NCBI RefSeq assembly: GCF_024223415.1
Contig: NZ_CP100500.1
Origin: Escherichia coli
GTDB taxonomy: Bacteria; Pseudomonadota; Gammaproteobacteria; Enterobacterales; Enterobacteriaceae
DNA length: 64,000 nt
Reading direction: 5' to 3' (one strand)
Part shown: positions 9,197-62,679 of the stretch, piece after piece
Layout: every line of letters begins with the position of its first letter
Position numbering within the stretch: the first letter of the stretch is position 1
Translations under genes and position numbers: made by a program
The notes under the pieces: model-generated
The model's database searches: none
What the model saw: the letters and a program-made list of their open reading frames with translations, nothing else
What the model was told of the DNA's origin: nothing

Positions 9197-9673
9197 TTAA
9201 AGCAGACCGTGTTCCGCAAAGGAGAACACCCGGCTGCCACCGACTATCAGATGGTCCGGTACCCGGATATCCACCAGGGCCAGTGCCTGTACCAGACGTT
9301 CAGTGATAAGGCGGTCTGCCTTACCGGGTGTGACCTCACCGGACGGATGATTGTGCGCCAGCACCACGGCAGCGGCATTGTGGTACAGGGCGCGTTTAAC
9401 CACCTCCCGGGGATGCACTTCCGTGCGGTTGATGGTACCGGTGAAGAGGGTTTCACCGGCAATCAGCTGATTCTGGTTGTTCAGGTACAGCACCCGGAAC
9501 TCTTCCCGCTCCAGTCCCGCCATGTGCAGAATCAGCCATTCCCGTGCCGCATGCGTGGAGGTGAAGGCCACGCCGGGTTCATGAAGATGGCGGTCCAGGG
9601 TTTTCAGGGCCCGCTGAATGAGGCTGCGCTCGCCGGGCGTCATCGCGCCGGGCAGAAAGGAAATCTGTTGCAT
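9197..9673 (-). CDS. RadC-like JAB-domain protein (YeeS/YfjY family)
   Basis: MQQISFLPGAMTPGERSLIQRALKTLDRHLHEPGVAFTS...HNHPSGEVTPGKADRLITERL; JAMM-type HNHPSG motif. Confidence 0.85.
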   Translation of the reverse strand: MQQISFLPGAMTPGERSLIQRALKTLDRHLHEPGVAFTSTHAAREWLILHMAGLEREEFRVLYLNNQNQLIAGETLFTGTINRTEVHPREVVKRALYHNAAAVVLAHNHPSGEVTPGKADRLITERLVQALALVDIRVPDHLIVGGSRVFSFAEHGLL

Positions 9674-32102: not shown

Positions 32103-32220
32103 CTGGATCCCTCAGATAATCAAAATTGGTACTCGATTATAGTGCCATCGCCTGCCTAAATAAACAACACAGCGTCTCATTTGTTGCAGTTAAGTGACAT
32201 ATTTAACAGGAGAGTCGGGA

Positions 32221-33486
32221 ATGAAAAATTCTGAACTGAATCATCGTCGCCAGCAGGCGACTCCCCGTGGTGTGGGGGTAATGTGTGACTACTTTGTCGG
32301 GAAAGCGGAGAACGCCACGCTGTGGGATGTGGAAGGCAATGAAGTTATCGACTTTGCCGCCGGTATTGCCGTACTGAACACCGGCCATCGGCATCCAAAA
32401 ATTGTGGCGGCGGTAGAGCAGCAGTTGCAGTCGTTTACCCATACCGCTTATCAGATTGTCCCTTATGAGAGTTACGTTTCGCTTGCAGAACGTATTAATG
32501 CTGTCGCCCCTGTCGATGGACCTGCCAAAACGGCATTTTTTACCACCGGTGCCGAAGCAGTTGAAAATGCGGTGAAAATTGCGCGCGCATACACCGGTCG
32601 TCCGGGGATTATTACTTTTGGCGGTGGGTTCCATGGTCGTACATTCATGACCATGGCACTCACGGGCAAAGTCGCTCCCTACAAAACAGGGTTTGGCCCG
32701 TTCCCGGGCTCAGTTTACCACGCCGTCTATCCTAATGATGCCCATGGCATTTCCGTTGATGATGCTCTCAGGAGTCTTGATCGTATCTTTAAAGCAGATA
32801 TTCCTGCTGATCAGGTCGCCGCGATTGTACTGGAGCCCGTTCAGGGAGAAGGCGGGTTCAATGTCGCTCCGGCCGCTTTTATGCAGGCATTGCGTGAGTT
32901 GTGCGATACACACGGGATCCTGCTGGTTGCCGACGAAGTACAGACCGGTTTTGCCCGTACTGGCAGGCTATTTGCGATGCAGCACTACGCTGTGAAAGCC
33001 GATCTGATAACAATGGCGAAAAGTCTGGCTGGCGGCTTCCCGTTATCGGGGGTTGTGGGGCGTGCCGAAGTCATGGATGCCCCGGCTCCGGGAGGACTGG
33101 GAGGTACTTATGCCGGTAATCCGCTGGCAGTAGCTGCTGCGCATGCGGTGCTGGATATCATTGAAGAAGAACAGCTCTGCCAGCGTGCCGATCAACTTGG
33201 CGAACATCTGAAAGAGGTGCTCAGTCAGGCCCGGGCAGGATGTCCGGCAATTGCGGATGTGCGTGGACTGGGTTCAATGGTGGCAGTGGAGTTTAACAAT
33301 CCGCAAAGCGGTGAGCCGTCGGCGGAATATGCACGACAGGTACAGCACAAAGCCCGGGAAAACGGCCTGCTGCTGTTGAACTGTGGTATCTACGGTAACG
33401 TTATCCGTTTTCTCTACCCTTTAACAATCCCGGATGCTCAGTTCAGCAAAGCGCTGAATATTCTGACCCGAATTCTGCGTACCTGA
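32221..33486 (+). CDS. class III aminotransferase (4-aminobutyrate aminotransferase GabT-like)
   Basis: Start MKNSELNHRRQQATPRGV with AGGAGAG Shine-Dalgarno; strongly GabT-like throughout. Confidence 0.85.
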   Translation: MKNSELNHRRQQATPRGVGVMCDYFVGKAENATLWDVEGNEVIDFAAGIAVLNTGHRHPKIVAAVEQQLQSFTHTAYQIVPYESYVSLAERINAVAPVDGPAKTAFFTTGAEAVENAVKIARAYTGRPGIITFGGGFHGRTFMTMALTGKVAPYKTGFGPFPGSVYHAVYPNDAHGISVDDALRSLDRIFKADIPADQVAAIVLEPVQGEGGFNVAPAAFMQALRELCDTHGILLVADEVQTGFARTGRLFAMQHYAVKADLITMAKSLAGGFPLSGVVGRAEVMDAPAPGGLGGTYAGNPLAVAAAHAVLDIIEEEQLCQRADQLGEHLKEVLSQARAGCPAIADVRGLGSMVAVEFNNPQSGEPSAEYARQVQHKARENGLLLLNCGIYGNVIRFLYPLTIPDAQFSKALNILTRILRT

Positions 33487-33620
33487 TATGCACGGAAAAT
33501 TGCCACAACGGCAGGGAAGCCTTTCTTTCCCACGTGTCGTTTGTGCCAGGCGTGAGTGATTTATTCCTGATATCACCTTTTTCCGGCGGCAATAGTCGCC
33601 GGTGTAATACGGAATCTGTT

Positions 33621-34865
33621 ATGTCTGAAAATGCCACCTTTTCCCCTGAACAGTCATGCCGCAAACATACCGCTGCGCCGGCGAAATCCCTGAGTTTCGT
33701 TGAAGGTGTGTCGATGATTGTCGGCACGAACATTGGCGCAGGTGTACTGTCTGTGGCCTACGCCTCCGGTAAAGCCGGTTTTCTGCCGCTGTTATTCTGG
33801 CTCGTGCTGGTCGGGAGCCTGACCACCATAACCATGCTGTATGTGGCTGAATCGACTTTACGTACCCGTAAACATTTGCAGTTAAGCGGATTGTCACATC
33901 GTTATGTCGGACGCTGTGGCGCGCTGATAATGTTCCTTTCCGTCTGTGTGAACAGCGTTGGCGCTCTGATTGCATATATGAGCGGAAGCGGTAAGCTGCT
34001 GCACTCACTGCTGGGCATTTCTCCAGCTCTGGGTAGCATGTTATTTTTCATTCCCGCCGCAGGAGTGCTTTATCTCGGCCTGAAAGCGATAGGTCGCGGG
34101 GAAAAATTTATAAGTATCGGTATGGTGGTGATGCTCACTATCCTTATCGTCGCCACAATGCTGAAAGACACAACACAAATGCGTTACCTGCTGGATGGCA
34201 ACTGGCTGTATATGGTGCCGGTCTTTAACGTTGTGGCATTTTGTTTCTCGGCACAATATATTGTTCCGGAAATGGCGCGCGGTTTTTCTGATAAACCAGA
34301 AAAATTGCCGAAGGCAATTATGGTCGGGATGGGAATTACCTTCATTCTGCTGGCTCTGGTGCCTATGTCTGTCATAGCACTCAACGGGCTGGACAATATT
34401 TCTGATGTGGCGACCATTTCCTGGGGACGTGCGCTGGGTGAGTGGGCCTTTTTCTCTGCGAATCTGTTTGCTCTTTGCGCGATGCTGACTTCTTACTGGG
34501 GACTTGGTGGCAGTTTTCTGACCAATATCGTTGACCAGTTCAGTCCGGGCGATGACAGCCAGCCTCTAAGACGCTTTCTGTTACTGCTGATCGTTGTCAT
34601 ACCACCGTTTATTCTTGCTTATAGCGGCATGGTATCGTTTGTAAATGCGCTTTATTTTGCGGGGGTCTTCAGTGGCGTGGTCCTGTCTGTTATGCCCATT
34701 CTGATACTGAAAGGGGCGCGCCAGCACGGTGACCTGACACCTGGCTGGACGTGTCCTGCACTCATTATTCATCCGCTACTCCAGAGCTTTATTGTGTTGT
34801 TATATCTCTGTAGCGCTGCGTATGCAATTGCTTCTGCGCTGGGCCATCTCCCGGCAGGCTGGTAA
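33621..34865 (+). CDS. amino-acid permease (HAAAP-type)
   Basis: About 11 predicted transmembrane helices; start placed at MSENATFSPEQ; family assignment moderate. Confidence 0.65.
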   Translation: MSENATFSPEQSCRKHTAAPAKSLSFVEGVSMIVGTNIGAGVLSVAYASGKAGFLPLLFWLVLVGSLTTITMLYVAESTLRTRKHLQLSGLSHRYVGRCGALIMFLSVCVNSVGALIAYMSGSGKLLHSLLGISPALGSMLFFIPAAGVLYLGLKAIGRGEKFISIGMVVMLTILIVATMLKDTTQMRYLLDGNWLYMVPVFNVVAFCFSAQYIVPEMARGFSDKPEKLPKAIMVGMGITFILLALVPMSVIALNGLDNISDVATISWGRALGEWAFFSANLFALCAMLTSYWGLGGSFLTNIVDQFSPGDDSQPLRRFLLLLIVVIPPFILAYSGMVSFVNALYFAGVFSGVVLSVMPILILKGARQHGDLTPGWTCPALIIHPLLQSFIVLLYLCSAAYAIASALGHLPAGW

Positions 34866-35175
34866 ACATAAAGGAAAAGTATTATCGACCTCCTGTATAT
34901 TAAAATTGAGTTAGCATAGTGACGAACAGATTTGGCAGGGCATATGTAGCCTGCTCCCCTCCGGGGTTTAAAGCTCTTTTTGTAAGCAACGGGCGCATGT
35001 GCTGACCCACTCATTTGACATCATGACGGTTTATCTGTACGTCACCATAACGCATTTTATAAGAATGTTTTTTGTCCCATAACAGGTGTCCACTGGTTAA
35101 AAAGGTGGGCACCTGTCGTTACCAGTACTGGCTTAATTGCTACATACGGCTGTCGGTTTACGCTTACTTTCAACT

Positions 35176-35251
35176 TGTGGGTAAGGGGATGGAGTGCGAA
35201 TAAATGATCGAGCTTCGTGCGAATCACTGATCGAATACATCGGAATGCGCA
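35176..35251 (+). repeat. interspersed repeat copy A1 (TGTGGGTAAGGGGATG terminus followed by GATC-containing subrepeats)
   Basis: Closely similar to 59539..59591; subunits of form GTGCGAAT-N-GATCG. Confidence 0.6.
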
Positions 35252-35424
35252 CTCTGAAGCAAACTTAAAACATCTCTGCACCATTCCATGCACGCATAAA
35301 AGTCATTCCGGCATTTCATTTTACATAACATAAACAGAACAATAATAATTACAACAACATTCACACCAGCATTACAGAACACACTCTGTCTGTTGTTATC
35401 ACCAGAAATATCAGGAGTATTTAA

Positions 35425-36591
35425 ATGATTATTTCCTCACCTGCAGATTACAGGGACGCCGCAAAACACAGACTGCCACGCTTTCTTTTTGATTACATAG
35501 ACGGCGGGGCTGTTACTGAAAAAACCATGCATGAAAATATGACCTCTTTATCTTCGGTCAGCCTCCGGCAGCAGGTGCTTTGTGGCGCCGGAGCCCCCGA
35601 ACTGAACACCACCATCCTTGATTCAGAATGGGCCATGCCTGTTGCTCTGGGCCCCGTCGGTGCCACTGGCATGTACGCCCGTCGTGGAGAGGTGCAGGCA
35701 GCCAGAGCGGCCTCAGCAATGAACATCCCTTATACTCTCTCAACCGTCTCCGTCTGCCCGATCGAAGAGGTCGCCGGACACGCTGACGGGCAACTGTGGT
35801 CCCAGTTATACGTCCTTCGGGATCGTGGTTATATGCAAAACGCACTTGAACGCGCCTGGACTGCAGGTATGAAAACCCTGGTATTTACCGTCGACATGCC
35901 TGTGCCGGGCTCCCGGTACAGGGATAACCATTCAGGGATGTCAGGTCCCCACGCCACACTGCGTCAGTATCTTCAGGCCGTTCTTCATCCCCGCTGGGCG
36001 CTGGATGTGGGAATTGCCGGTCGTCCTCTGTCATTTGGTAACATCGAAACGTACACCGGGCATAAAATGTCGATGGATGACTATATGGGCTTTATCAGCA
36101 AAAACTTTGATCCCTCTATTGCATGGAACGATCTCGAATGGATCCGTGATGGCTGGAAAGGTAAACTGATAATAAAAGGGATCCTTGTTCCGGAAGATGC
36201 AAAAAATGCTGTACGGCTTGGCGCGGATGGCATCATTGTCTCCAATCATGGCGGACGTCAGCTTGATGGTGCCATCCCCACGGCCAGGGCATTACCGGCG
36301 ATAGCAGATGCAGTGGGTGATGACATCACGGTACTGGCGGATTCAGGTATTCGTTCCGGTGTGGATGTGGTCCGGATGCTTGCTCTGGGGGCAAAAGGTG
36401 TGCTGCTGGGAAGAGCGTATATTTACGCACTTGCCGCTGCGGGAAAAAAAGGCGTTGAGCACCTGCTCAGACTTTATGCTGAAGATATGAAAGTCACCAT
36501 GACGCTGATCGGCGCTTCTTCTCCCGCTGATATCAGCAGCAGAAATCTTGAATATCTGGAAAAAGAATTCTCCCGACATTCATCATCCTGA
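35425..36591 (+). CDS. FMN-dependent L-lactate dehydrogenase (LldD paralogue)
   Basis: 388 aa [29 protein letters not shown]...; alpha-hydroxy-acid oxidase fold motifs. Confidence 0.88.
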
Positions 36592-36667
36592 CCAAAGTAA
36601 ACCAGGCACATATCCTCCATGCTCCCGGGACAACAGAGCGCAGTTCGGGCACTACAGCCTTACTGGT

Positions 36668-36958
36668 TTACCAGTATGGTCTGCATTCAGAAGGGACCGA
36701 CAACAACTCAGCCAGCTCCGCCACAAGGCGGTTGGTTTCCAGTAATTTCCGCAGTCTCACCGAAAAATAGCCTTGTGCCACATCGTGATTTTCACAGGCT
36801 TCCCTGCGCGTCAGCCCCAGAACAAAATAATCCCTCAGCGCCAGGATAACCTTTTTACTGTTAACGGGAGAAAGCGCTGCAAGTATTTCAAAATGTGCAT
36901 CTGACATGCTTCCGGGCGTGTCATATATCCCGGCAACACGACTGTGATATATCCCCAC
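36668..36958 (-). CDS. PapB/FocB-family fimbrial-type transcriptional regulator (orphan)
   Basis: 96-aa ORF with PGSMSDAHFEILAALSPVNSKKVILALRDYFVLGLTRREACENHDVAQGYFSVRLRKL, resembling PapB. Confidence 0.55.
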   Translation of the reverse strand: MGIYHSRVAGIYDTPGSMSDAHFEILAALSPVNSKKVILALRDYFVLGLTRREACENHDVAQGYFSVRLRKLLETNRLVAELAELLSVPSECRPYW

Positions 36959-37839
36959 GGATACCCCCTGATTACCGCCTGCCCTTATTCCCCGGGAGAC
37001 TGAGAACAGGCTGAGATATAAGTATATTTATATAATATTATATTTCGGATTATTCGCAGAATACTGAAAAAACCGGTCGGGTCAACCGCAGGAAAACAGA
37101 AAGAGCCTGTAATAACGCATAGAAACGATATTTAAAACCAGAACAACCATCAAAAACAGAACATAAAGTCACAAAAACCGTCAAAAACGACCAGGTACTG
37201 CATTTTTAACACCTTTTTTAAATTTTGGTATCTTTACAAAAAACACCACCTGAAAATCATTTATTTAATTAAATAAAGTAAATTGCTTAGCCTGATAAAT
37301 ATTGTTCTGCAACACTCCGGTTCAGGCAGAATGTATTTTCATGGCTTACCCATTCAGGCGTAAATGCGATATTCCGCACATGACAGAGACCACACAAAGA
37401 AAAACAGGCGCAGACAGCCGGATACAGGATAAATTAACACTTCACAATCCGGCATTATTACGCTACAACATTCACGGGCAACTGCCCTTGTAACGAAAAC
37501 TTCCTTAATTTGGGTATTTGTGTGCCGTACGTCTGTGGTGTACGGCTTTTTTTCATTTTTTTATAATTTCTATAAATAAAGATATAATCAATACGTATAT
37601 ACCGTCGTATAAGATCCTTCTTCACCTTTCATTAAAAAGATCCGGAACAAAACAGACGATGAGATTGTGGTACTACCAGATTTACACCCTTACTCCGGAT
37701 AATTCACAAATCCTGAAATTACGACCTTCCTCCCGTTGCCGGACTGAAACAATATGCAGACACTCTGACGGACATGTCAGCAATGCACTCGCTCTCTGCT
37801 GTACAGGTATTACACCATACTTCACCAGGAGGTCTGTTC

Positions 37840-39483
37840 ATGGATATCTGGTCACAGGACTATGATCCCGTCGGAAATATCTGGCTGTCCAGCCTGACAG
37901 CATCGCTTCCCATTCTGTTTTTTTTCTTTGCCCTGATTAAGCTGAAGCTTAAAGGCCATGTTGCTGCCACATGGACTGTCATTATCGCGCTCATCGTGGC
38001 CCTTCTTTTTTATAAGATGCCTCTCACAGCCGCACTCGCTTCCGTGCTCTATGGTTTCTTCTATGGCCTGTGGCCCATTGCCTGGATAATTATTGCCGCA
38101 GTTTTTGTTTATAAAATTTCTGTAAAAACCGGACAGTTCGATATCATTCGCGCTTCAGTGCTGTCCGTTACGCCTGATCAGCGTATTCAGATGCTGATTG
38201 TGGGGTTTGCCTTTGGTGCCTTTCTCGAAGGGGCCGCCGGTTTTGGAGCACCTGTGGCCATAACAGCAGCACTGCTCGTGGTGCTTGGGTTCAGACCACT
38301 TTACGCGGCCGGGTTGTGTCTGATCGTCAATACAGCTCCCGTGGCCTTTGGTGCGATGGGGATCCCCATTCTCGTCGCAGGCCAGGTTACCGGGCTGGAC
38401 AGCTTTGAAATCGGTCAGATGGTTGGTCGTCAGTTACCCTTCCTGACCATTATTGTGTTGTTCTGGATCATGGCAATTATGGATGGCCTGCGTGGCATTA
38501 AGGAAACCTGGCCCGCCGTTCTGGTTGCCGGAGGTTCCTTCGCCATAGCCCAGTTTCTCAGTTCCAACTTTCTGGGCCCGGAGCTCCCGGACATCATATC
38601 ATCACTGGTGTCGCTGGTTTGTCTGACGCTTTTCCTGAAACGCTGGCAGCCTGTACATATTTTTCGCTTTGACAACACCCCGTACCAGAATACGGACTCA
38701 TCACCACTGAGCCGTTCACAGGTGATACGGGCATGGTCGCCATTTCTGTTTCTGACTGCCACGGTGACACTCTGGAGTCTTCCTCCCTTTAAAACACTGT
38801 TCGCACCGGGCGGTACACTGCATGACCTGGTGATTACTGTTCCTGTGCCGTATCTTGATAAACTCATTGCACGTATGCCTCCGGTAGTCAGCGAAGCCAC
38901 TGCTTATGCCGCGGTGTTTAAGTTTGACTGGTTCTCTGCCACCGGTACCGCCATCCTGTTTGCAGCATTGCTCTCTGTGATCTGGCTGAAGATGAAACCG
39001 TCAGATGCTGTCAGCACCTTTGGCAGTACACTGAAAGAACTTGCCCTGCCCGTCTATTCCATCGGCATGGTGCTGGCTTTCGCCTTTATCTCTAATTATT
39101 CGGGGCTTTCATCCACACTTGCCCTGGCTCTGGCACAGACAGGCAGCGCCTTTACGTTCTTCTCACCGTTTCTGGGCTGGCTGGGCGTATTTCTGACGGG
39201 ATCAGATACCTCATCCAATGCATTATTTGCATCACTCCAGGCAACGGCAGCTCATCAGATCGGGGTCTCCGATATTCTGATGGTTGCCGCCAACACCACA
39301 GGGGGAGTAACCGGCAAAATGATTTCTCCACAGTCCATTGCCATCGCCTGCGCAGCAACCGGACTTGTTGGCAAAGAATCAGAACTCTTTCGTTTTACTG
39401 TTAAACACAGCCTGATCTTCACCTGTATTGTGGGAGTCATCACCTCTCTCCAGGCATGGGTATTCACCTGGATGATCCCATGA
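37840..39483 (+). CDS. L-lactate permease (LldP/GlcA family paralogue)
   Basis: Start [39 protein letters not shown]...; LldP-like over full length; track ORF begins 66 nt upstream. Confidence 0.9.
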
Positions 39484-39658
39484 AATATTTGTTGTGCCGG
39501 ATCTTTTCCGGCATGATGATGTGTGTTACAGCCTCTGGCTTATAACACTCTGCAGTAGTGCTGGCTGACGTGACTGCCGGATATTCTGGTTTTCTTAAGT
39601 CACGGATATACTGACGACAGGGTTTCACATTCAATATTCAACTGACAGGTATGTTTAT

Positions 39659-40951
39659 ATGGCACACCGCTACCTGACACGACAGGATCACAGGACCTTA
39701 TCTCTGGCTGCGCTCGGAGGCGCACTTGAATTCTATGACTTCATCATTTTTGTTTTTTTCGCCGCCGTCATTGCTGAGCTCTTTTTCCCGCCGGATATAC
39801 CGGAATGGCTCCGTCAGCTCCAGGCATTTGGTATATTTGCTGCCGGGTACCTGGCACGACCTCTCGGCGGAATAATTCTGGCCCATTTTGGCGATATACT
39901 TGGGCGAAAGAAAATGTTCACCCTGAGTATTTTGCTTATGGCAGTACCGACACTTGTTATCGGTATTTTGCCAACCTACAGCTCTGTGGGTACCCTGGCT
40001 CCTGTGCTGCTTCTTCTGATGCGTCTGCTTCAGGGCGCAGCGATTGGCGGTGAAGTGCCCGGTGCCTGGGTTTTTGTTGCTGAGCATGTACCGGAGCGCC
40101 GAACCGGTATTGCATGCGGAACACTGACAGCAGGTTTAACCGCCGGGATCCTGCTTGGTTCAGTGGTTGCCACACTTGTCAATTCAGTATTGTCTCAGGA
40201 TATTGTTTACGATTACGGCTGGCGATTCCCCTTCCTTCTTGGTGGTGTTTTTGGCCTGGCAGCAATGTACCTGCGCCGCTGGCTGGAGGAAACTCCGGTA
40301 TTTCTGGAAATGAAAGCCAGAAAAAAACTGGCTCAGGAATTACCGGTAAAAGCTGTCGTTTTAAGACATAAAAAAGCTGTTGTGATTTCCATGCTGTTGA
40401 CATGGCTGATATCCGCAGGGATTATTGTGGTGATACTGATGGCACCGGTCTGGTTACAGAAACAGTATGACTTTTCGCCGACAGTCACCTTACAGGCTAA
40501 CAGCATTGCAACTATTATGCTGAGTCTGGGATGCCTGCTGGCCGGTATGGCCATTGATTCTTTTGGTGCCGGAAAAACCTTTATATCAGGCAGTATTCTG
40601 CTTGGATGTTCAGGATGGCTGTTCTATCACACTGTCGGTGAGTATCCTGAAATGTTGTTCTGGCTGTATGGGCTAGCGGGATTCAGTGTGGGCATTGTCG
40701 GGGCCGTCCCTTATGTTCTCGTGCGTATTTTCCCCGCAGAGGTCAGGTTTACCGGCATTTCATTCTCTTACAATGTCGCTTATGCAGTGGTGGGGGGACT
40801 GACTCCTGTTGTGGTCACGATGTTAACGGAAATCTCCCCGATGGCTCCAGCATGGTATGTTATGCTGTTATCACTTGTGGGATCAGGACTGGGAATATGG
40901 TTCTGCAGGGATCCCCGTCTTTTTATCTGTCACGCAGACAAAGACAAATAA
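39659..40951 (+). CDS. MFS transporter (metabolite:H+ symporter family)
   Basis: 430 aa, 12 predicted helices, MFS motif GDILGRKK. Confidence 0.8.
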   Translation: MAHRYLTRQDHRTLSLAALGGALEFYDFIIFVFFAAVIAELFFPPDIPEWLRQLQAFGIFAAGYLARPLGGIILAHFGDILGRKKMFTLSILLMAVPTLVIGILPTYSSVGTLAPVLLLLMRLLQGAAIGGEVPGAWVFVAEHVPERRTGIACGTLTAGLTAGILLGSVVATLVNSVLSQDIVYDYGWRFPFLLGGVFGLAAMYLRRWLEETPVFLEMKARKKLAQELPVKAVVLRHKKAVVISMLLTWLISAGIIVVILMAPVWLQKQYDFSPTVTLQANSIATIMLSLGCLLAGMAIDSFGAGKTFISGSILLGCSGWLFYHTVGEYPEMLFWLYGLAGFSVGIVGAVPYVLVRIFPAEVRFTGISFSYNVAYAVVGGLTPVVVTMLTEISPMAPAWYVMLLSLVGSGLGIWFCRDPRLFICHADKDK

Positions 40952-41260
40952 TGTTTCACCGTTATATAACGGTATCATTCAGTTTTTAAAAATGGCGACA
41001 GGTTAACCTGTCGCCATCCGGTCAGATGCTCACCAGACCGCGCCCCCCATCAGTCTCCATATCCTCCCCCTTGCCCTGCCGGATGATAGCGCCACGCGAC
41101 ATCACCAGGTAGTGGTCCGCCGTAATGTTCCGGTGAAATCGTCCTGACACGTTTCCGGGCTCGTTATCAGCGGTTTTTGCGAATGATCGCCGCCCTGCGA
41201 TGGTTGATTTATTTTATTGCGCCCCGGCGTCTGCCTTGCCAGGTACCGGAGGCGGGCTCT

Positions 41261-41360
41261 GAAGTACTGAGTAGGGTGAGCGCGTCAGGCCACGAAGTAC
41301 TGACACGGGAGTTTGTGGCAGGCAGTGAAGTCCTGACCAGGGTAAGGGAGGGGCTGACGT
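41261..41360. repeat. three degenerate 33-bp tandem direct repeats beginning GAAGT(A/C)CTGA
   Basis: Units start at 41261, 41294 and 41327. Confidence 0.6.
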
Positions 41361-41580
41361 GCATGCCCTGACTGTCAGCCAGGGCGCGTGGTGACTGACT
41401 TTCTCAATAACCCGCTGTCAGGCGCTCAACGCCCGACAGCAGGCCATGGCCCGGTGTGCAAAGACCTGACGGCAGGCCTTGTGTCACCCGGATAAGGTAA
41501 ATCCCTCAAGAGGCAGCAACTCAGCCAGTCGGTCCTCAGGCCACTCCGGCAGGCGCGTCAGTACGTCCGTCAGCCAGGCA

Positions 41581-41692
41581 TGTTGCAAAATCGCATCGTG
41601 TTCGATCGCCGATTCGCATCGTACTCGATCGCTGATTCGCATTGTCCGATCATTGATTCGCATCCTGCAGTCACTCCTGGAATTAACTTTTC
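41581..41692 (+). repeat. repeat copy B1: putative IS21-family left terminal region with three GATC-containing about 21-bp subrepeats
   Basis: Starts TGTTGCAAAATCGCATCG; subunits GATTCGCATCG-N-GATCGC; lies about 150 bp upstream of istA. Confidence 0.5.
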
Positions 41693-41733
41693 TGCATAGT
41701 CTCTACTGCTGAATTTTCTTCTCAGTAGAGGTC

Positions 41734-43269
41734 TTGATGGCTAAAAAGAAAATCTCCCGGAGTTCTATGGAAACCTGTTTAAAAATTCTCCAACTTAAGT
41801 TCGAGCAGCATCAGACAAACCGGACTATCGCACTTACACTGAACATCAGTCCCTCGACTGTTTCCGATGTATTGTCCCGCTTTAAGAACACGTCAATATC
41901 GTGGCCTTTGCCTGAATCGATGACAACTCAACGTCTTGAGGTGCTTATCTTTCCTGGCAAGCAAGCCCCGGAAATGACGCCGGCACTGCCTGACTGGCTC
42001 TACATTGATACCGAACTACGTCGTGTGGGAGTCACTCGTCAGCTCTTATGGATGGAATACAAACATCAGGCTGGTGAATATGCTCTGGGATACTCACAGT
42101 TCTGTCGTCGTTATCTGCACTGGAAAAAAAGCGTGCGTTACTCCATGCGGCAGGAACATCGTGCTGGTGAAAAACTCTTTATCGACTTCTGTGGTCCTAC
42201 AGTCCCTGTTGTTAATCCGGAAACCGGAGAAGAACGCAGAGTGGCCATCTTTGTAGCCGTGATGGGAGCATCTAACTATACCTATGTTGAAGCGTGCGAA
42301 GGTCAGGATCTGATGTCGTGGCTAAACGCCAACAGCCGATGTCTGACCTTCCTTGGTGGTGTACCAAAACTGCTGATCCCGGATAACCTTAAAAGTGCTG
42401 TCAAAAAAGTCGATCGCTACGAACCGGTCATCAATGAGAGTTACCAAGCATTCGCAGAGCACTACAATACAGTGATACTCCCAGCAAGACCAAGAAAACC
42501 AAAGGATAAAGCGAAAGCCGAAACGGCTGTACTTATCGTCGAACGATGGCTGCTTGCCCGCATTCGCAACGAGACCTTCTTTACACTCAGGAGCCTGAAC
42601 AGTCGTCTACGCGAGTTGTTGGTAGAGCTGAATAACCGTCCCATGAAAGGATACGGCAACCAGACGCGTGCAGAGCGTTTTGCCCTGCTGGATGCCCCTG
42701 CATTATCAGCCCTGCCAGTATCAGAGTATGAGTTCGCTGAATACAAAACGGTGAAAGTTGCACCTGATTACCATGTTGAATACGCCCACCACTGGTACTC
42801 AGTACCTCATGAACTGATCGGACAACGGTTATCCCTGAAAGCCACTCAGACAGTGATCCAACTCTGGCATCAGGGGCAATGCGTGGCACAACATCCGCGC
42901 AGCCTCCATGAGTACAAGCACACGACCAACCCTCTACACATGCCTGCAGCACATCAGGCACACAGCAGATGGACACCGGAAAGTCTTCAGGAAGCAGCCA
43001 GAAAGATAGATCCTTATACAGCAATGACAGTGGATAGCATGCTGAACAGTAAACGTCATCCTGAACAGGCTTACCGGACAGTCCTGGGGCTGCTGAGCCT
43101 GAAAAAACACTATGGTCGTGAGCGTCTGGAAAAAGCCTGTCATGTTGCCCGGGAGTGCAGAACGTCGGAAAGAAGGTTCATCGAAAACCTTCTGCGTAAT
43201 AACAGGGAAAACCTTTCCCTCCGGAAAAAGAGAGGCAGACGGAGGGAAACGTATCAAAAATCCAGTTAA
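41734..43269 (+). CDS. istA: IS21-family transposase IstA (orphan; no istB downstream)
   Basis: 511 aa with N-terminal helix-turn-helix and DDE integrase core; sequence typical of IstA. Confidence 0.85.
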   Translation: MMAKKKISRSSMETCLKILQLKFEQHQTNRTIALTLNISPSTVSDVLSRFKNTSISWPLPESMTTQRLEVLIFPGKQAPEMTPALPDWLYIDTELRRVGVTRQLLWMEYKHQAGEYALGYSQFCRRYLHWKKSVRYSMRQEHRAGEKLFIDFCGPTVPVVNPETGEERRVAIFVAVMGASNYTYVEACEGQDLMSWLNANSRCLTFLGGVPKLLIPDNLKSAVKKVDRYEPVINESYQAFAEHYNTVILPARPRKPKDKAKAETAVLIVERWLLARIRNETFFTLRSLNSRLRELLVELNNRPMKGYGNQTRAERFALLDAPALSALPVSEYEFAEYKTVKVAPDYHVEYAHHWYSVPHELIGQRLSLKATQTVIQLWHQGQCVAQHPRSLHEYKHTTNPLHMPAAHQAHSRWTPESLQEAARKIDPYTAMTVDSMLNSKRHPEQAYRTVLGLLSLKKHYGRERLEKACHVARECRTSERRFIENLLRNNRENLSLRKKRGRRRETYQKSS

Positions 43270-43395: not shown

Positions 43396-44391
43396 TCAGT
43401 GGCTGATTTTTTTCAGCTGTTCTTCACTCAGCCCCGTAATTTTCATGATTGTCTGGAAACCCATCCCTTCAGCCAGCATATTACGCGCGGTTTCCAGTTT
43501 GCCTTCCAGTTGTCCTTCGAGTCGACCTTCGGCACGGCCTTCCATTCTGCCTTCCATTCTGCCTTCCAGCTTACCACGCTCCATACCCTGCGCCATGCCC
43601 AGCGCAATGCCTTCCTCGCGTCCGCTCTGCTTCAGTTGTTCAGCCAGTGTCATTATGTTGCCCTCGTGCTGTGGCAGCCGCTCCGCCAGCGTCTGCAAAA
43701 ACCTTACCGTCACATGTTCACTGCCGTTCAGCAGATAGTGGAACAGAACCTGCGCCAGCTCTTCATTCAGCGAAGTCTGTATCAGCTGAACCAGCCTGTC
43801 CATCTGCAGCATGATGTCGCGGCTGCGGCTGTGTTTCATCAGCAGCGTCAGTGCCCCCATACGACGGTGCTGCATTATTTCATCGTCATCCAGTACCGTC
43901 ACGTCCACCAGGTGGAACGGTCTGGTGTAGATTTTAGCAGCAAGTTCCGGATTTCTGAAACACTCCAGCCAGTTCATGCTGTACGGGTACGGACTCCGCT
44001 CACCGTGGTAGAATAACAGCGGGATCACCAGCGGCAGCTCATGGTGCTGTTCAAAGTGACGCTGCATCGCCGCCACCGCATATCTGAGCATCCTGAACGC
44101 CATAAACGCGTTTTCCGTGCTCTGGTGTTCCGCGAGGCAATAAATATACCCCTCCTCACCGCTGACGGTCTTCATGCTGAACAGCGCATCGCACGCATAC
44201 TGTTTCAGATCCTGGTCCACAAAGGTACAGGGCTCCAGCCGCAGCGTTGACAGATCACACAGCTGCCGGTATTCCGCCGGAAGATGCAGTTCAACAAAAT
44301 CACGGGCCACCTCTGCGGAGGCCATAAACGCCCTGAAGGCAGCATCATGCGGCGTGGGGGTATTTTTCTCTTTCCTGCTGCTCACCGTCAT
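43396..44391 (-). CDS. Rpn-family recombination-promoting nuclease / putative transposase (YhgA-like)
   Basis: 331 aa; PD-(D/E)xK-like N-terminal region; C-terminal tandem GRMEG/GRAEG/GRLEG/GQLEG repeats. Confidence 0.75.
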   Translation of the reverse strand: MTVSSRKEKNTPTPHDAAFRAFMASAEVARDFVELHLPAEYRQLCDLSTLRLEPCTFVDQDLKQYACDALFSMKTVSGEEGYIYCLAEHQSTENAFMAFRMLRYAVAAMQRHFEQHHELPLVIPLLFYHGERSPYPYSMNWLECFRNPELAAKIYTRPFHLVDVTVLDDDEIMQHRRMGALTLLMKHSRSRDIMLQMDRLVQLIQTSLNEELAQVLFHYLLNGSEHVTVRFLQTLAERLPQHEGNIMTLAEQLKQSGREEGIALGMAQGMERGKLEGRMEGRMEGRAEGRLEGQLEGKLETARNMLAEGMGFQTIMKITGLSEEQLKKISH

Positions 44392-58303: not shown

Positions 58304-58745
58304 GTCTGCGCCACATACGGGACAAATTCCCGGGGATACGTGACATATGCCGGTAACACAATCACAAATATCGCGGTTGTATCAGCAATTGTTGATACAA
58401 CGAAAAATTTGCACCTGACAGCGGGCAGAAATGAACAGGAAGAATCAAAGCACAACAACTTATTACAAAACTCCGCACTGCCATATCCTGCTTTCAGGAC
58501 CATGCTGATTTTCATGACTGTTCCGGCAGGAACAGTCATTACGCAAAAAACTCCCCGGTAAAACCATTATCTGCCCTCCTGAAAATCACTTCTTCGCAAG
58601 AGTACAACTGAGTTCAGGTATTTTGAGCTGAACACGCACTTTTTTCTGCGCCGGAAAAAATTTACGGTATTCCTCTTCCTTCAGCACTTCACCGGTATTG
58701 CGCCGCCAGATAAATGGTATGCCATCACTTTTCTGAATAACTGCA

Positions 58746-59195
58746 TTAATCTGATAACAGCTCATTTTTCTCACTTTGTTCCGGCGGCATTTCTCCTGCC
58801 CGACGCGAACACATCCAGCGACGCAGAGCCGTCAGCGTGTCTTCTTCCTGAACGCTGCAGGATTTTGGTGTGGCTGGCTGTGGAGCGGGTTGCCGGTAAC
58901 GTATCCCTGAGGCTGGCACAGACGTCACGCCCGGAGATACTGACAGGATCCGGATGGCACGGATTTTCTGACGGTGCGCATCAATCAGGTTAAGTACTTC
59001 GCTGTCAATGAACTCCCGCGCATCGCGGGTAATGAAAAGCAGAATATCGTGTGCCTCTGCCTGGCTGATGCCGAATGCACGCGCAACACAGATTTCGGTC
59101 AGCAATACTTTTTCTCTCAATCCCCACATGGCAACAGCGACATGCAGCGGAGCATGCTCAAAATCACAGACAATTCCCGGTAACATTTTTCTCAT
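58746..59195 (-). CDS. putative CaiF/GrlA-family transcriptional regulator
   Basis: 149 aa; N-terminal region PLHVAVAMWGLREKVLLTEICVARAFGISQAEAHDILLFI resembles CaiF/GrlA winged-helix proteins. Confidence 0.4.
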   Translation of the reverse strand: MRKMLPGIVCDFEHAPLHVAVAMWGLREKVLLTEICVARAFGISQAEAHDILLFITRDAREFIDSEVLNLIDAHRQKIRAIRILSVSPGVTSVPASGIRYRQPAPQPATPKSCSVQEEDTLTALRRWMCSRRAGEMPPEQSEKNELLSD

Positions 59196-59263
59196 GCCAT
59201 CATCACCACACTAATCCCGCATGACTGGTAATACTTTAACTTCACACGCCATGGACGACAATA

Positions 59264-59327
59264 TGCTGTAAAATCGCATCGTGCCGATCACTGATTCGCA
59301 TCGCATCATCCAGCACATTTACTTTTC
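59264..59327 (+). repeat. repeat copy B2 (TGCTGTAAAATCGCATCGTG...GATC...GATTCGCATCG)
   Basis: Similar to 41581..41692. Confidence 0.55.
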
Positions 59328-59538
59328 CCGGTGTTGAAAGGAAGTATTTGTGGCAGCTTGTTGAAAATACAACTCCACCGGTCAATCCCCAGGATATAAA
59401 GACAGCAACGATAATGCAGGCCAGCCCCGGAGAATAACCTGCAAGAAAAAATGATCCCCCACCCGGTATTAAGGCTGTATGGGCAGGTTAACACGGTGAT
59501 TACTGTCAGTTAATACCATCACGCCGGCCCCAAAAACC

Positions 59539-59591
59539 TGTGGGCAAGGGGATGTCGTGCGGATCACTGAGCAAATTCATCGGAATGCGCA
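59539..59591 (+). repeat. repeat copy A2 (TGTGGGCAAGGGGATG...)
   Basis: Similar to 35176..35251 but lacking one 23-bp subunit; abuts the helicase stop codon. Confidence 0.55.
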
Positions 59592-59603
59592 GCAAAGCAC
59601 TCC

Positions 59604-61955
59604 TCAGAATAACCCCCCTTCACCATCAGCCACAATCCTGTATCCCATCGCCTTATAACCCCGCTGGCGTTTATCCCACATTCTGAGCAGCACAGGATAC
59701 GCTTTATCCACAAAATCAATGATCCTGACATCGCTTTTACCGGTATACTGTCTGTGCAGACGCCCTGCATACTGCTGTAACGTCCCTTTCCATGACACCG
59801 GCATCGCCAGAATCAGCGTATCCAGCGGTGGGTGGTCAAATCCCTCACCAATAAGTTTACCGGTTGACAACAGAATGCGGGGAGAATCCTGAGGAAGCGC
59901 ATTTAACTCAGAAATCAGCATTGTACGCTTTTTTTTCGATAACCGGCCATGAAGCACAAAGGGTGACAGGTTCAGTGAATGCATTACTGATGCTATATCA
60001 TCCAGATGCTCTTTTCGTTCAGTCAGTACCAGAACTTTACGTCCCTGCGCGAATGCCTTCATGGCTTCTTCAGCTATCGCCACAGTCCTGTCATGATCAA
60101 GCGCAATTTCTCTGAAAATATCCTGGATCCCCGCATCCGATGGTAAATGTCCGGATGTAAAACGGAAACGGAGCTGCACTTCCAGATTATGCGGACTTTC
60201 CTTCGGGCTGGCCGCTGTGTGACGAAGGGCACCACAGTACATAAAAATGATGGGATGCAGACCATCCCGTCGGACAGGCGTTGCCGTCAGTCCCAAAAGA
60301 TATCTGGCATTCGTTTCCTTCAGAACAGCAGAAAATGAAAACGCTCCAGCATGATGGCACTCATCAACTATGACTTGCCCGTAATTCCTGACCACAGGTG
60401 CAACTTTGCCATGCCTGAACAGAGACTGCACAACAGCAATATCAATATTGCCAGAGGGGTTATGTTTGCCCCCTCCGATAATACCAATACCGTCACTGGT
60501 CTGCAGAAATACCCCAAGCCGCTCCTGCCATTGCTTTAATAACTCAGTCCGGTGTACCAGTACAAGTGTATTAACTCTCCGTCGTGCAATCACAGCCGCG
60601 GCGGTAACCGTCTTACCAAAAGCCGTTGGCGCACAAAGTACACCAGAATCATAACGGAGCAATACCGAAACAGCCTCTTCCTGATCCGCTCTGAGGTTTC
60701 CCGTGAACACAGCATGACATTCTGTACCTGCAAATCGTTCATCGATGATTTCTGCAGCAATATTGTTGTCACTGAGGAAGGATAATGCGCTGTCCAGACA
60801 TCCACGGGGTAACGCAATGTGTTGCGGATAATTTTCCGCACAACCTGTAACCCGGGGTTTATTCCAGACAGACATTCTCATGGCCTGAGCCTTATAAAAC
60901 ACAGGATTAGGAAACGCAGCCAGTCGAATAAGCCGGTTGGCCAGCGGCTGAGGTAATTGCGCTTTTTCGAAATAGATCTGGTTTGCCAGCGTGATTCTCA
61001 GCGGCTCAGCAACAGAAACCGTCAGTTTGTTTTCTGATGATGTTTTCCACGGCGTGCTCAGGTCTTCGTCGGTAAAGTTCACATCCAGTGGATGAATACT
61101 TCCTGTAGCCCGTAATATTGTCGGTTCTATATCCTGCACATTCATCGGGATCACCGATGCCAGGAATGCCCACTGATCAGGATAAGGCTGAAAATTCATA
61201 TCAACAAAAACACTGCCTCCCGATTCACGCGGTCTTTTTTGCAGAGGTAACGCGATGAGATTGCCGAATCCCCCTTTTGGCATGGTATCCTGATTAGGAA
61301 ATAATCGGTCATAAGAACTCAACCGCAGTTGCCGGGAACGGCTACACGTATGGCTGATAACGGCTGTCCCCAGTCGGCGTGCATCACGGGCCGAAACCCG
61401 GGAAGCAAAAAATATCCAGACATGCGCCCCCTGACGTGAGCGGGATATTTCCAGCGCTGCGGGTATCCCCAGCTCATCACAGGATCGCATGAATGCGGAT
61501 GCATCCTTCTGCCATTCAGCATCATCAAAATCAACAGCCAGAAAATAACAGGAATCGTCTTCCAGCAGCGGATATACCCCGACTGTATGGTAGCCTGCGA
61601 GATGACGGTAAATGACAGGATCGGATACAGGTAGCAACTGACGGTGTGCGCAGTCACCGCATTTTATCCCGGGCTTACCGCAGATTCCCGGCTTCCATTC
61701 GTTAGCACAGGCCGGCGAATACCCTGATTTACCACTGACCTGACTTTCCCAGCGAAGGGCCCATACATCATCACGCCCACGAAACAACCGACGAAATAAT
61801 GAAACCTTCTGTTCAGCAGATAATGCGGAAACATGATGTACAGAACGCTGCGGTTTACGTCGCCATTCAATCCCGTGAGCTTCAAGTAATGAGGCCAGAC
61901 GGGCATTTTCTGCCCTCAGTGCAGCTAATTCGTCGTTATCAGATTGACACACCAT
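59604..61955 (-). CDS. fusion protein: N-terminal archaeo-eukaryotic primase (primase-polymerase)-like domain plus C-terminal SF2 DExH helicase
   Basis: N-terminal coiled coil, Cys cluster CGKPGIKCGDCAH, AEP-like motifs FLAVDFDD and GAHVWIFF; helicase motifs APTAFGKT, VIVDECHH, GLTATP, QYAGRLHRQ. Confidence 0.8.
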   Translation of the reverse strand: MVCQSDNDELAALRAENARLASLLEAHGIEWRRKPQRSVHHVSALSAEQKVSLFRRLFRGRDDVWALRWESQVSGKSGYSPACANEWKPGICGKPGIKCGDCAHRQLLPVSDPVIYRHLAGYHTVGVYPLLEDDSCYFLAVDFDDAEWQKDASAFMRSCDELGIPAALEISRSRQGAHVWIFFASRVSARDARRLGTAVISHTCSRSRQLRLSSYDRLFPNQDTMPKGGFGNLIALPLQKRPRESGGSVFVDMNFQPYPDQWAFLASVIPMNVQDIEPTILRATGSIHPLDVNFTDEDLSTPWKTSSENKLTVSVAEPLRITLANQIYFEKAQLPQPLANRLIRLAAFPNPVFYKAQAMRMSVWNKPRVTGCAENYPQHIALPRGCLDSALSFLSDNNIAAEIIDERFAGTECHAVFTGNLRADQEEAVSVLLRYDSGVLCAPTAFGKTVTAAAVIARRRVNTLVLVHRTELLKQWQERLGVFLQTSDGIGIIGGGKHNPSGNIDIAVVQSLFRHGKVAPVVRNYGQVIVDECHHAGAFSFSAVLKETNARYLLGLTATPVRRDGLHPIIFMYCGALRHTAASPKESPHNLEVQLRFRFTSGHLPSDAGIQDIFREIALDHDRTVAIAEEAMKAFAQGRKVLVLTERKEHLDDIASVMHSLNLSPFVLHGRLSKKKRTMLISELNALPQDSPRILLSTGKLIGEGFDHPPLDTLILAMPVSWKGTLQQYAGRLHRQYTGKSDVRIIDFVDKAYPVLLRMWDKRQRGYKAMGYRIVADGEGGLF

Positions 61956-62115: not shown

Positions 62116-62679
62116 TCAGTTGTGTCGCGGTCGGCCGCGGTTACTTTTTTCAGGTAGTCTGCTACGCATCAGAATAATACCGTGTTCTTTCTGATCCTGT
62201 TTAGCCAGGTAGCTAAGGGCGTAACGTAAGTCATCTACCGCAGATTTATTACTATAGCGAATTACGTGATCAATACGCACCGGGTATTTATCTTTAGCCC
62301 GGCACAGGTGAAAATAACCATCCCCTTCCGTGATCCGCCTCCAGATATCTCCCAGCAGCCTGGATATCCGGTAAGATTTCTTGTGCCGTTGTCCATCCAG
62401 ATAGCCGATAAAATGAATATGAAGTCCCTTGTTTTGTGTATATTCCATAACCCAGTAATATCCTGCCAGAATCGTTTGGGTTTCGCTAAGTAAGCGCTGC
62501 ATCTCAATACACATACTGTGCTTACAGGAATGACCGAAACTGGGCGTGTCTTTCCTGTAGGCAAAATCAATTCTGAAAGGTAACAGTTTAGAAAAACGTT
62601 GAAACATACCTTCCATGTGTTTATTCACGTCTTTCAGAATCGTGAAATTCATTTCGTAATTGGGATTGGCATTGTACAT
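62116..62679 (-). CDS. YagK/YfjJ-family (inovirus Gp2-like, putative HUH-type) protein
   Basis: 187 aa with LLPFRIDFAYRKD and GLHIHFIGYLDG motifs. Confidence 0.65.
   Translation of the reverse strand: MYNANPNYEMNFTILKDVNKHMEGMFQRFSKLLPFRIDFAYRKDTPSFGHSCKHSMCIEMQRLLSETQTILAGYYWVMEYTQNKGLHIHFIGYLDGQRHKKSYRISRLLGDIWRRITEGDGYFHLCRAKDKYPVRIDHVIRYSNKSAVDDLRYALSYLAKQDQKEHGIILMRSRLPEKSNRGRPRHN

Follow-up and report, generated by a model that had tools for sequence, protein, structure and literature searches.

The GATC-containing repeats at four loci of the window, which here refers to the whole 64-kb stretch of E. coli DNA analysed, are best explained as fossils of at least three copies of one insertion sequence (IS) of the ISSso4 group of the IS21 family, two of them with nested ISEc13-like tips. 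We give this reading a probability of about 0.88. None of the copies in the window is able to transpose on its own.

Recurrence at the four loci named in the original prediction was confirmed, and all four read as it had described. The loci contain seven GATC-containing units of 21-23 bp, which are confined to them in the 64-kb window. When the unit GATCRNTGATTCGCA was searched for with up to 2 mismatches, it was found 7 times in 64 kb, against 1.39 times expected from shuffles, and the matches, in tandem with a spacing of 21-23 bp, all lie within the four loci at the following positions.

35195, 35218 and 59558, minus strand: unit GATCRNTGATTCGCA
41604, 41627, 41648 and 59286, plus strand: unit GATCRNTGATTCGCA

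Two related element types had been distinguished, type A (at 35176-35251 and 59539-59591) and type B (at 41581-41692 and 59264-59327). In repeat alignments, the type B units form a single family, and the type A units are their reverse complement (35195-35238 vs 41598-41641, 44 nt, 73%). Therefore, A and B are inverted relatives, not parallel types, and the two-type description gives way to one of opposite ends, right (IRR) and left (IRL), of a single IS. Between the two loci of each kind, 59267-59303 matches the other type B copy at 95% in the repeat alignment, and 35215-35251 is 89% identical to 59555-59591.

The left-end side comprises the following features.

41484 to 41582, minus strand: C-terminal fragment of an IS66-family transposase gene, with its N-terminus missing, ending at the IRL
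41584 to 41736, plus strand: IRL (type B), with the terminal unit TGCAAAATCGCATCG, three GATC-N5-TTCGCATYG units (GATC at 41604, 41627 and 41648) and the leader to istA
41737 to 43269, plus strand: orphan istA, 73% identical to ISSso4 IstA
59267 to 59303, plus strand: IRL tip of a gutted second copy, with the terminal unit TGTAAAATCGCATCG, GATC (59286-59289), ACTGA and the 9-mer TTCGCATCG

The true IRL termini are TGCAAAATCG at 41584 and 59267. A left-end profile built only from complete relatives matches 41591-41763 (nhmmer, E 1.1e-28), and the whole of ISSso4 matches 41596-43220 (nhmmer, E 2.2e-246). ISSso4 (IS21 family; Shigella sonnei / E. coli) is named here as in PGAP annotation. Its complete copy, L002:2009-4646, contains istA and istB and is flanked by a 7-bp duplication, TTCTGCC; its termini are TGCAAAATGG...GGAATACGCA, and both ends are built from GATC units. 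The duplication fixes the ISSso4 termini as TGCAAAATGGCATC... and ...GAGCGGAATACGCA. The ISSso4 left end consists of a terminal unit and five GATC-N5-TTTGGCAT units, followed by the istA leader as in the window, and the architecture of the IRL at 41584 is identical to this duplication-fixed end. The IRL starts 153 bp upstream of istA (41584 vs 41737), as in the predicted distance of about 150 bp.

The orphan istA of the original prediction is a genuine IS21-family transposase gene, and it does lack istB. Its product scores 287.8 bits against the IstA model NF033546 (cut-off 160) and contains the Pfam domains rve and Mu-transpos_C_2. Homology to IstA extends to residue ~495 (nt ~43220) and no further, so that ~26 codons at the 3′ end of the gene are missing, as are istB and the IRR. 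No istB follows istA in the window, where an rpn gene comes instead; the complete relatives have istB. Thus, the copy at 41584 is a truncated remnant, IRL plus 3′-truncated istA (41584-43220), and not a complete IS21 member. Exact and near-exact IstA look-ups returned the same istA fossil in hundreds of assemblies, always followed by rpn and never by istB, and often further disrupted by ISEc23. The IS66-family transposase gene, cut at 41582, is the target interrupted by the IS21-like element. In an identical E. coli locus, 41484-41582 is annotated by PGAP as a pseudogene ‘missing N-terminus’, and it matches Pfam DDE_Tnp_IS66_C.

Several observations were made beside these features. The N-terminal helix-turn-helix (HTH) of IstA (41737-41990, residues 16-82) also matches the IS66 accessory TnpA model NF038385 at 55 bits, which may explain why PGAP places ‘IS66 TnpA, partial’ beside ISSso4-like fragments, for example in L007. 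Both IRL copies are preceded by ATGY (ATGT at 41580-41583 and ATGC at 59263-59266) in otherwise unrelated flanks, unlike ISSso4 copies, which have no conserved flank; ATGY could be chance, a target preference or a sign of an end that is 4 nt longer. The gene directly after the truncated istA, 43396-44391 on the minus strand, encodes a recombination-promoting nuclease of the Rpn/YhgA family. It contains short 12-nt periodic repeats (TTCCAGTTTGCC...) at 43492-43569, and its product varies from 304 to 331 aa across related assemblies.

The right ends are found in the tail of type A.

35192 to 35251, plus strand: IRR tip, with two GATC units and a terminal unit, ending in GGAATGCGCA at 35251
59555 to 59591, plus strand: IRR tip, with the 9-mer TCGTGCGGA, TCACT, GAGC and a terminal unit ending in GGAATGCGCA at 59591

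At its inner edge, the first tip reads the 9-mer GAGTGCGAA, then TAAAT, then GATC. A right-end profile of ISSso4 and a Salmonella element matches 35193-35251 (nhmmer, E 1.6e-7), reaching the last profile position. The window IRR reads ...GATCGAATACATCGGAATGCGCA at 35251, and the ISSso4 right end reads ...GATCGAATAGAGCGGAATACGCA. In the second tip, GAGC is a mutated GATC; this tip is too short and degenerate to obtain a score of its own against the right-end profile. Its terminus has independent support from outside the IS, since homology of the TOTE locus to the window starts at 59592-59594, right after 59591, in 685 E. coli genomes.

By sequence comparison, a single ISSso4-like IS supplies both ends, its IRL in type B and its IRR in the tail of type A. 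The termini in the window are of the TG...CA type (TGCAAAATCG and GGAATGCGCA), with 1-3 phased units per end, and are homologous to the ends of ISSso4 and the Salmonella element. The pairing of A with B rests on shared unit cores and homology to relatives because no intact copy was found. An intact element of the window type, with istB and the native IRR, was found neither in complete genomes nor in plasmids nor by IstA look-ups. The best full-length relative in complete E. coli genomes is ISSso4 at ~75%, and the best in plasmids is at 72.8%.

Type A had been taken to start with TG, at TGTGGG, which turned out to be the wrong side, as the true terminus is the right edge, GCGCA. With TGTGGG as a terminus, followed by transposase-binding repeats of ~22 bp, type A could be the end of a Tn7-like or Mu-like transposon, and this start and these repeats do superficially resemble Tn7 ends. 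We give this explanation next to no weight. TGTGGG lies within a Tn5-type inverted repeat (IR) and overlaps a transposase stop codon, no tnsABC- or MuAB-like genes are nearby, and in the ISSso4 IRR, to which the units are homologous, the terminus is on the opposite side. Homology and terminus mapping refute a Tn7- or Mu-like end.

The neighbouring genes suggest another alternative, in which the GATC arrays are functional DNA of the host or the island, either origin iterons of the primase-helicase or a pap-like Dam/Lrp phase switch. Phased GATC sites do occur near the primase-helicase gene and near a papB-like gene (36668-36958). However, complete IS21-family elements have ends to which the units are homologous, terminus included. 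In 685 genomes, the repeats are missing from the locus of the ‘primase-helicase’, which is a protein of a TOTE conflict system, and the upstream region of the papB-like gene contains no repeat copy. A host or island function of the arrays is hardly credible on these grounds. The two copies in 59264-59591 had also been said to bracket the 3′ side of the primase-helicase gene. They do not enclose the gene, as both are located 3′ of it, and 12 nt separate the outer end (59591) from the stop codon (59604-59606).

At the head of type A, ACYTGTGGGYAAGGGGATG does not belong to the IS21-type end. It is the 19-bp right IR of an ISEc13-like element, a Tn5-type IS of the IS4 family, remnants of which are as follows.

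35173 to 35191, plus strand: solo 19-bp right IR ACTTGTGGGTAAGGGGATG, ISEc13-like, with 0 mismatches to the IR pattern and the rest deleted
59304 to 59307, plus strand: CATC, a possible stub of the nested IS comprising the first 4 nt of its left IR (by the register rule described below and the IR start CATCCCC)
59308 to 59554, plus strand: decayed 3′ end of an ISEc13-like IS, ending in the 19-bp right IR ACCTGTGGGCAAGGGGATG at 59536-59554

The sequence TGTGGGYAAGGGGATG in type A, previously taken as IS21 sequence, is accordingly the right IR of the nested IS. The 19-mer occurs in the window exactly twice, at 35173-35191 and 59536-59554, with 0 mismatches (0.07 occurrences expected at up to 3 mismatches), and is the terminus of intact 1,490-bp copies with 9-bp duplications. 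When 59255-59600 was used as a blastn query, 59308-59555 matched the 3′ end of annotated IS4-family transposase genes at ~72% identity; this stretch includes TGTGGGCAAGGGGATG, and homology in the alignments ends right after ...ATG. A nucleotide profile of the IS also matches the remnant (nhmmer, E 3.9e-21). At the protein level, 59318-59544 corresponds to residues 396-471 of the transposase, interrupted by two stops and a frameshift (tblastn, E 3e-13), so that only the last 76 transposase codons are in the window. Because its head is a Tn5-type IR and 59318-59544 is a transposase remnant, type A is a chimera of a Tn5-type right IR and an IS21-type IRR tip. The left IR of the nested IS was not found in the window, apart from the possible CATC stub, a weak assignment at a length of 4 nt. 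Matches to a loose left-IR pattern at 9671, 23720, 25189, 35312 and 62500 were rejected as spurious.

An intact 1,490-bp copy of the nested element, L007:1510-2999, encodes a 471-aa transposase with the domains Tnp_DNA_bind, DDE_Tnp_1 and Dimer_Tnp_Tn5, the stop codon being within the right IR. Its IR pair was verified as CATATCCTTACCCATAAAT and ACTTGTGGGTAAGGGTATG, and it is inserted in unit 1 of an ISSso4-like IRL with the 9-bp duplication TTGGCATTC. Sources label this transposase ‘transposase of ISEc13’ or ‘shiE’. We call the 1,490-bp element ISEc13-like, as the name ISEc13 rests on the source label. The 9-bp duplication is seen in the relatives L007, L017, L022-L026 and L043, and the window keeps single ends only.

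Taken together, 59267-59591 is a shell that contains an IRL tip, a Tn5-type remnant and an IRR tip without istAB. The flanks of the shell, AATATGC and GCAAAGC, form no target duplication, and solo ends are what remains at the other loci. Target-site duplications, which measure 4-8 bp in the IS21 family and were to be checked for around the copies, survive at none of them in the window, as expected for solo ends and rearranged shells. The proposal that the loci other than the one upstream of istA are solo IS ends held, in that they are solo or partial ends; for example, 35173-35251 retains only the 19-bp IR and a two-unit IRR tip.

Similar shells recur in L035, where the nested IS is complete, and in L021; they have no istAB and no flanking duplication. 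Their layout is an IRL tip, a Tn5-type IS, and an IRR tip or an inverted IRL tip. Since the IRL and IRR tips of 59267-59591 are in the correct inverted orientation ~325 bp apart, and similar IRL-IS-IRR shells exist in L035 and L021, the shell could be viewed as a MITE derived from an IS21-like IS and mobilised in trans by IstAB, with the other loci as MITE pieces. The flanks speak against this view, as neither the window shell nor those in L021 and L035 have a target duplication. Moreover, no second copy exists in 5,426 complete E. coli genomes, where the interior alone matches, at 72%, IS4-family transposase genes, and this interior is a decayed piece of another IS rather than a deletion derivative of IS21. 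With no duplication, no other copies and a foreign interior, a MITE is quite improbable, and we rejected it.

Under the preferred reading of decayed IS copies, the simplest origin of the 59267-59591 shell would be recombination between nested IS copies in IRL and IRR, which would have deleted istAB. The recurring shells in general probably arise by such recombination. In an empty-site comparison, only the right flank of the shell is conserved elsewhere; for the left flank, 58700-59263, megablast gave no match in the 5,426 complete E. coli genomes.

The preferred reading gives all four loci the following history. Either end of such an IS consists of a terminal unit (5′-TGC...GCA-3′) and, behind it, phased units of 21-24 bp, in which GATC is invariant and the core is specific to the lineage (TTCGCAT in the window). 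If they work like the L1/L2 and R1/R2 elements of IS21 and IS5376, the units would be binding sites for the HTH domains of IstA in building the transpososome. ISEc13-like elements had inserted into unit cores at GATC-N5-[9-bp duplication]-N5-GATC. An insertion in unit 1 or unit 2 leaves IS21 tips that differ by whole units, and later deletions removed most of both elements. That copies differ by whole subunits was thus correctly predicted as far as unit counts are concerned; what varies is not the copy number within an intact end, because the nested IS truncated the ends at the same register of successive units.

The insertion register was examined in intact relatives. The exact L007-type transposase is found at ten distinct places, seven of which directly adjoin an IS21-family istA. 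Its duplications are as follows.

9-bp duplication TTGGCATTC: ISSso4 unit 1
9-bp duplication TTGGCATCA and its complement: ISSso4 unit 3, in both orientations
9-bp duplication ATAACATCG: ISEc12

All these duplications have the form GATC-N5-[9 bp]-N5-GATC. The register GATC-N5-[duplication]-N5-GATC is kept by relatives of lower identity in other IS21-type ends.

L042, 86% identity: the IS, then TTCGCATCG-N5-GATC
L043, 84% identity: 9-bp duplication TGATGCCAG in an ISSso4-like IRL
L040, 62% identity: GATC-N5-TTCCATTTG, then the IS
P0039 lineage, 57% identity: 7-bp duplication, 21-bp GATC period, one site in both orientations
L041, 55% identity: the IS, then an IRR tip ending in GGAATGCGCA

In total, the register is held at 23 distinct junction flanks of seven lineages (55-100% transposase identity), in which GATC keeps a distance of exactly 14 nt to the boundary of the IS (12 nt for the P0039 lineage). 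The naive binomial probability is ~1e-41 at a GATC density of 0.0032 per nt, a value that overstates independence as the flanks are homologous. ISEc13-like elements (L007, L017-L026 and L034-L043) lie almost exclusively inside IS21-family end units, and the register is seen in both orientations and in both IRLs and IRRs of ISSso4, ISEc12, the Salmonella element and an AT-rich metagenomic IS21 element. A search of genome contigs for ISEc13-like transposases returned relatives at up to 45% and a short fragment at 61%, with no usable junctions.

The junctions in the window fit the same register. At 35191|GAGTGCGAA-TAAAT-GATC the nested IS is in IRR unit 2, and at 59554|TCGTGCGGA-TCACT-GAGC it is in IRR unit 1, whose GATC has mutated. 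The junction in the IRL, GATC-ACTGA-TTCGCATCG|CATC (59286-59307), fits as well, weakly, as CATC is 4 nt long.

Incidentally, the duplication is 7 bp where the GATC period of the host IS21 units is 21 bp (L034, L036 and L037, of the P0039 lineage) and 9 bp where it is 23 bp (L007, L025, L026 and L043), and the distance from GATC to the duplication is constant at 5 nt in both cases. The stagger may follow the GATC spacing, or both elements may have co-evolved.

Without any target specificity, the type A modules could descend from a single ISEc13-like insertion into one IRR, followed by duplication and by loss of a unit through slippage. The two modules do have one junction type in common, and both of their IRs read GGGGATG, as opposed to GGGTATG in ISEc13-like copies. 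Yet the two type A copies are just 81-89% identical on alignment, and their unit counts are unequal. In addition, the register recurs independently in units 1 and 3 of ISSso4 IRLs, in both orientations, and in ISEc12, and it is also present in the Salmonella element, the AT-rich metagenomic IS21 element and IRR tips, with many duplications intact. Thus, we regard a single origin as unlikely and prefer separate insertions in one register.

We tentatively propose, at somewhat less than even odds, that the ISEc13-like clade is a site-specific ‘parasite’ of IS21-family ends that uses the GATC pair, with Dam-coupled IstA binding as a corollary. The ISEc13-like transposase would read the phased GATC pair, either directly or through its Dam-methylation or protein-bound state, and would cut 5 nt inside each GATC, landing in the predicted IstA-binding core of the unit. 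Landing in either orientation would disable the host IS and generate IRL-IS-IRR shells. As the corollary, the conserved GATC in each unit of the ISSso4/ISEc12 group would couple IstA binding to Dam methylation and replication. A link to Dam methylation and replication is known for IS10 and IS50. Tn5-type enzymes are otherwise known for near-random insertion. Precise targeting of IS21 end units by a Tn5-type IS clade and strict conservation of GATC in the units may be new. Neither is described in the searchable literature outside ISfinder and subscription journals, and searches on ISSso4, ISEc12, ISEc13, IS21 with GATC and Dam, and Tn5 with GATC target yielded nothing relevant beyond mentions in catalogues. 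The naming of ISEc12 and ISEc13 in sequence leads us to speculate that their depositors had come across one nested case or more.

The window is E. coli island DNA, of which 32194-41742 is 100% identical to a locus in TUM1886 and others. The H51 variant of the 35176 locus differs just by an unrelated IS3 insertion nearby. A gene for an orphan fimbrial regulator of the PapB/FocB family, 36668-36958 on the minus strand, is located between lldD and lldP. It falls within the stretch between the solo IRR (35251) and the IRL (41584), and no fimbrial operon is nearby. The TOTE gene, 59604-61955 on the minus strand, encodes a 783-aa fusion of an AEP primase and an SF2 helicase and adjoins an inovirus Gp2-like/YagK-YfjJ gene (62116-62679, minus strand). 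In strain C11, a convergent gene for 161 aa is located just downstream of the TOTE gene (L003:3508-3993); the window lacks it, its IS shell lying right beside the stop codon of the TOTE gene. In the left flank of the shell, an open reading frame of 149 aa (58746-59195, minus strand) gives a weak match to a CaiF/GrlA regulator (E 0.007).

For annotation purposes, the repeats are IS remains at the borders of old rearrangements within an E. coli genomic island: one border adjoins the IS66 fragment, another is downstream of the TOTE conflict gene, and a third is upstream of lldD. It would be an error to annotate them as regulatory GATC arrays, as iterons or as a novel family of repeats. Beyond the island, a clade of the Tn5 family apparently has a precise, symmetric target rule aimed at the predicted transposase-binding repeats of another IS family. 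Such targeting, if true, would be natural IS-versus-IS antagonism and a possible start for engineering target-selective Tn5-type transposases. Control of IstA binding by Dam methylation is a testable idea for a widespread enterobacterial IS21 group, ISEc12 alone being in 1,592 of the 5,426 complete E. coli genomes.

Among known systems, ISSso4 is the closest to the IS21-type part of the repeats. It shares with the window the termini TGCAAAAT...GGAAT(A/G)CGCA, the leader upstream of istA, and the placement of the first GATC 20-21 nt from the terminus followed by GATC units every 21-24 bp. ISSso4 has five units in IRL and three in IRR. It differs in its core, TTGGCAT vs TTCGCAT in the window, at a nucleotide identity of ~75%, and the window copies lack istB, the IstA C-terminus and the target duplications. 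The expectation of IS21-family ends was therefore right in substance, as the repeats are terminal multi-repeats of that family, and wrong in anatomy, as to the roles of A and B and the foreign head.

The Salmonella plasmid relative (L008) and ISEc12 (L022) have the same end design as ISSso4. In five IS21 lineages, with IstA identity down to 48%, the first GATC is 20-21 nt in and the next ones follow every 21-24 bp, and the core between GATCs varies by lineage. ISEc12 resembles the window elements in its TGCG terminus and its 23-bp GATC spacing, and the ISEc13-like IS inserts into it as well. On the other hand, its IstA is 48% identical and its unit core is ATAACAT; older annotation calls the window IstA ‘transposase for ISEc12’, a label that reflects loose similarity.

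ISEc13/‘shiE’ (IS4 family, Tn5/IS50-type) matches the 19-mers in the window with its right IR at 17-18 of 19 positions, and the 3′ remnant at ~72% DNA and 53-58% protein identity. Relatives of this type combine Tnp_DNA_bind, DDE_Tnp_1 and Dimer_Tnp_Tn5 and make a 9-bp duplication as IS50 does. The IR sublineage in the window, present as fragments only, has diverged from ISEc13 in its terminus, CATCCCC vs CATACCC.

The terminal inverted repeats of IS21 typically contain repeated elements (L1/L2 and R1/R2) engaged by the HTH domains of IstA and a catalytic CA tip, and binding of the IS21/IS5376 units by IstA HTH was seen in cryo-EM structures (PMC11208146). These ends are like those in the window in being multi-unit and terminating in CA (PMC11208146). 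They have two units, whereas the ISSso4 group has up to 5-6, each with GATC. No statement on GATC or Dam was found in PMC11208146 or elsewhere in the searched literature. At the IS100 end in strain C11 (L003:3440-3510), two GATC sites (GGATCT and GGATCA) are spaced by ~30 bp, so that GATC may be a feature of IstA-binding repeats outside the ISSso4/ISEc12 group too.

Insertion of one IS into the ends of another mobile element has precedents, as IS231 inserts into the IRs of Tn4430, and IS4321/IS5075 into those of the Tn21 family. The ISEc13-like IS is like them in site-specific insertion into terminal repeats of another mobile element, and unlike them in being a Tn5-type IS that inserts midway between two phased GATCs in either orientation; the families and the targets also differ. 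The repeats of the window thus belong to a known kind, decayed IS21-family ends nested with ISEc13-like debris.
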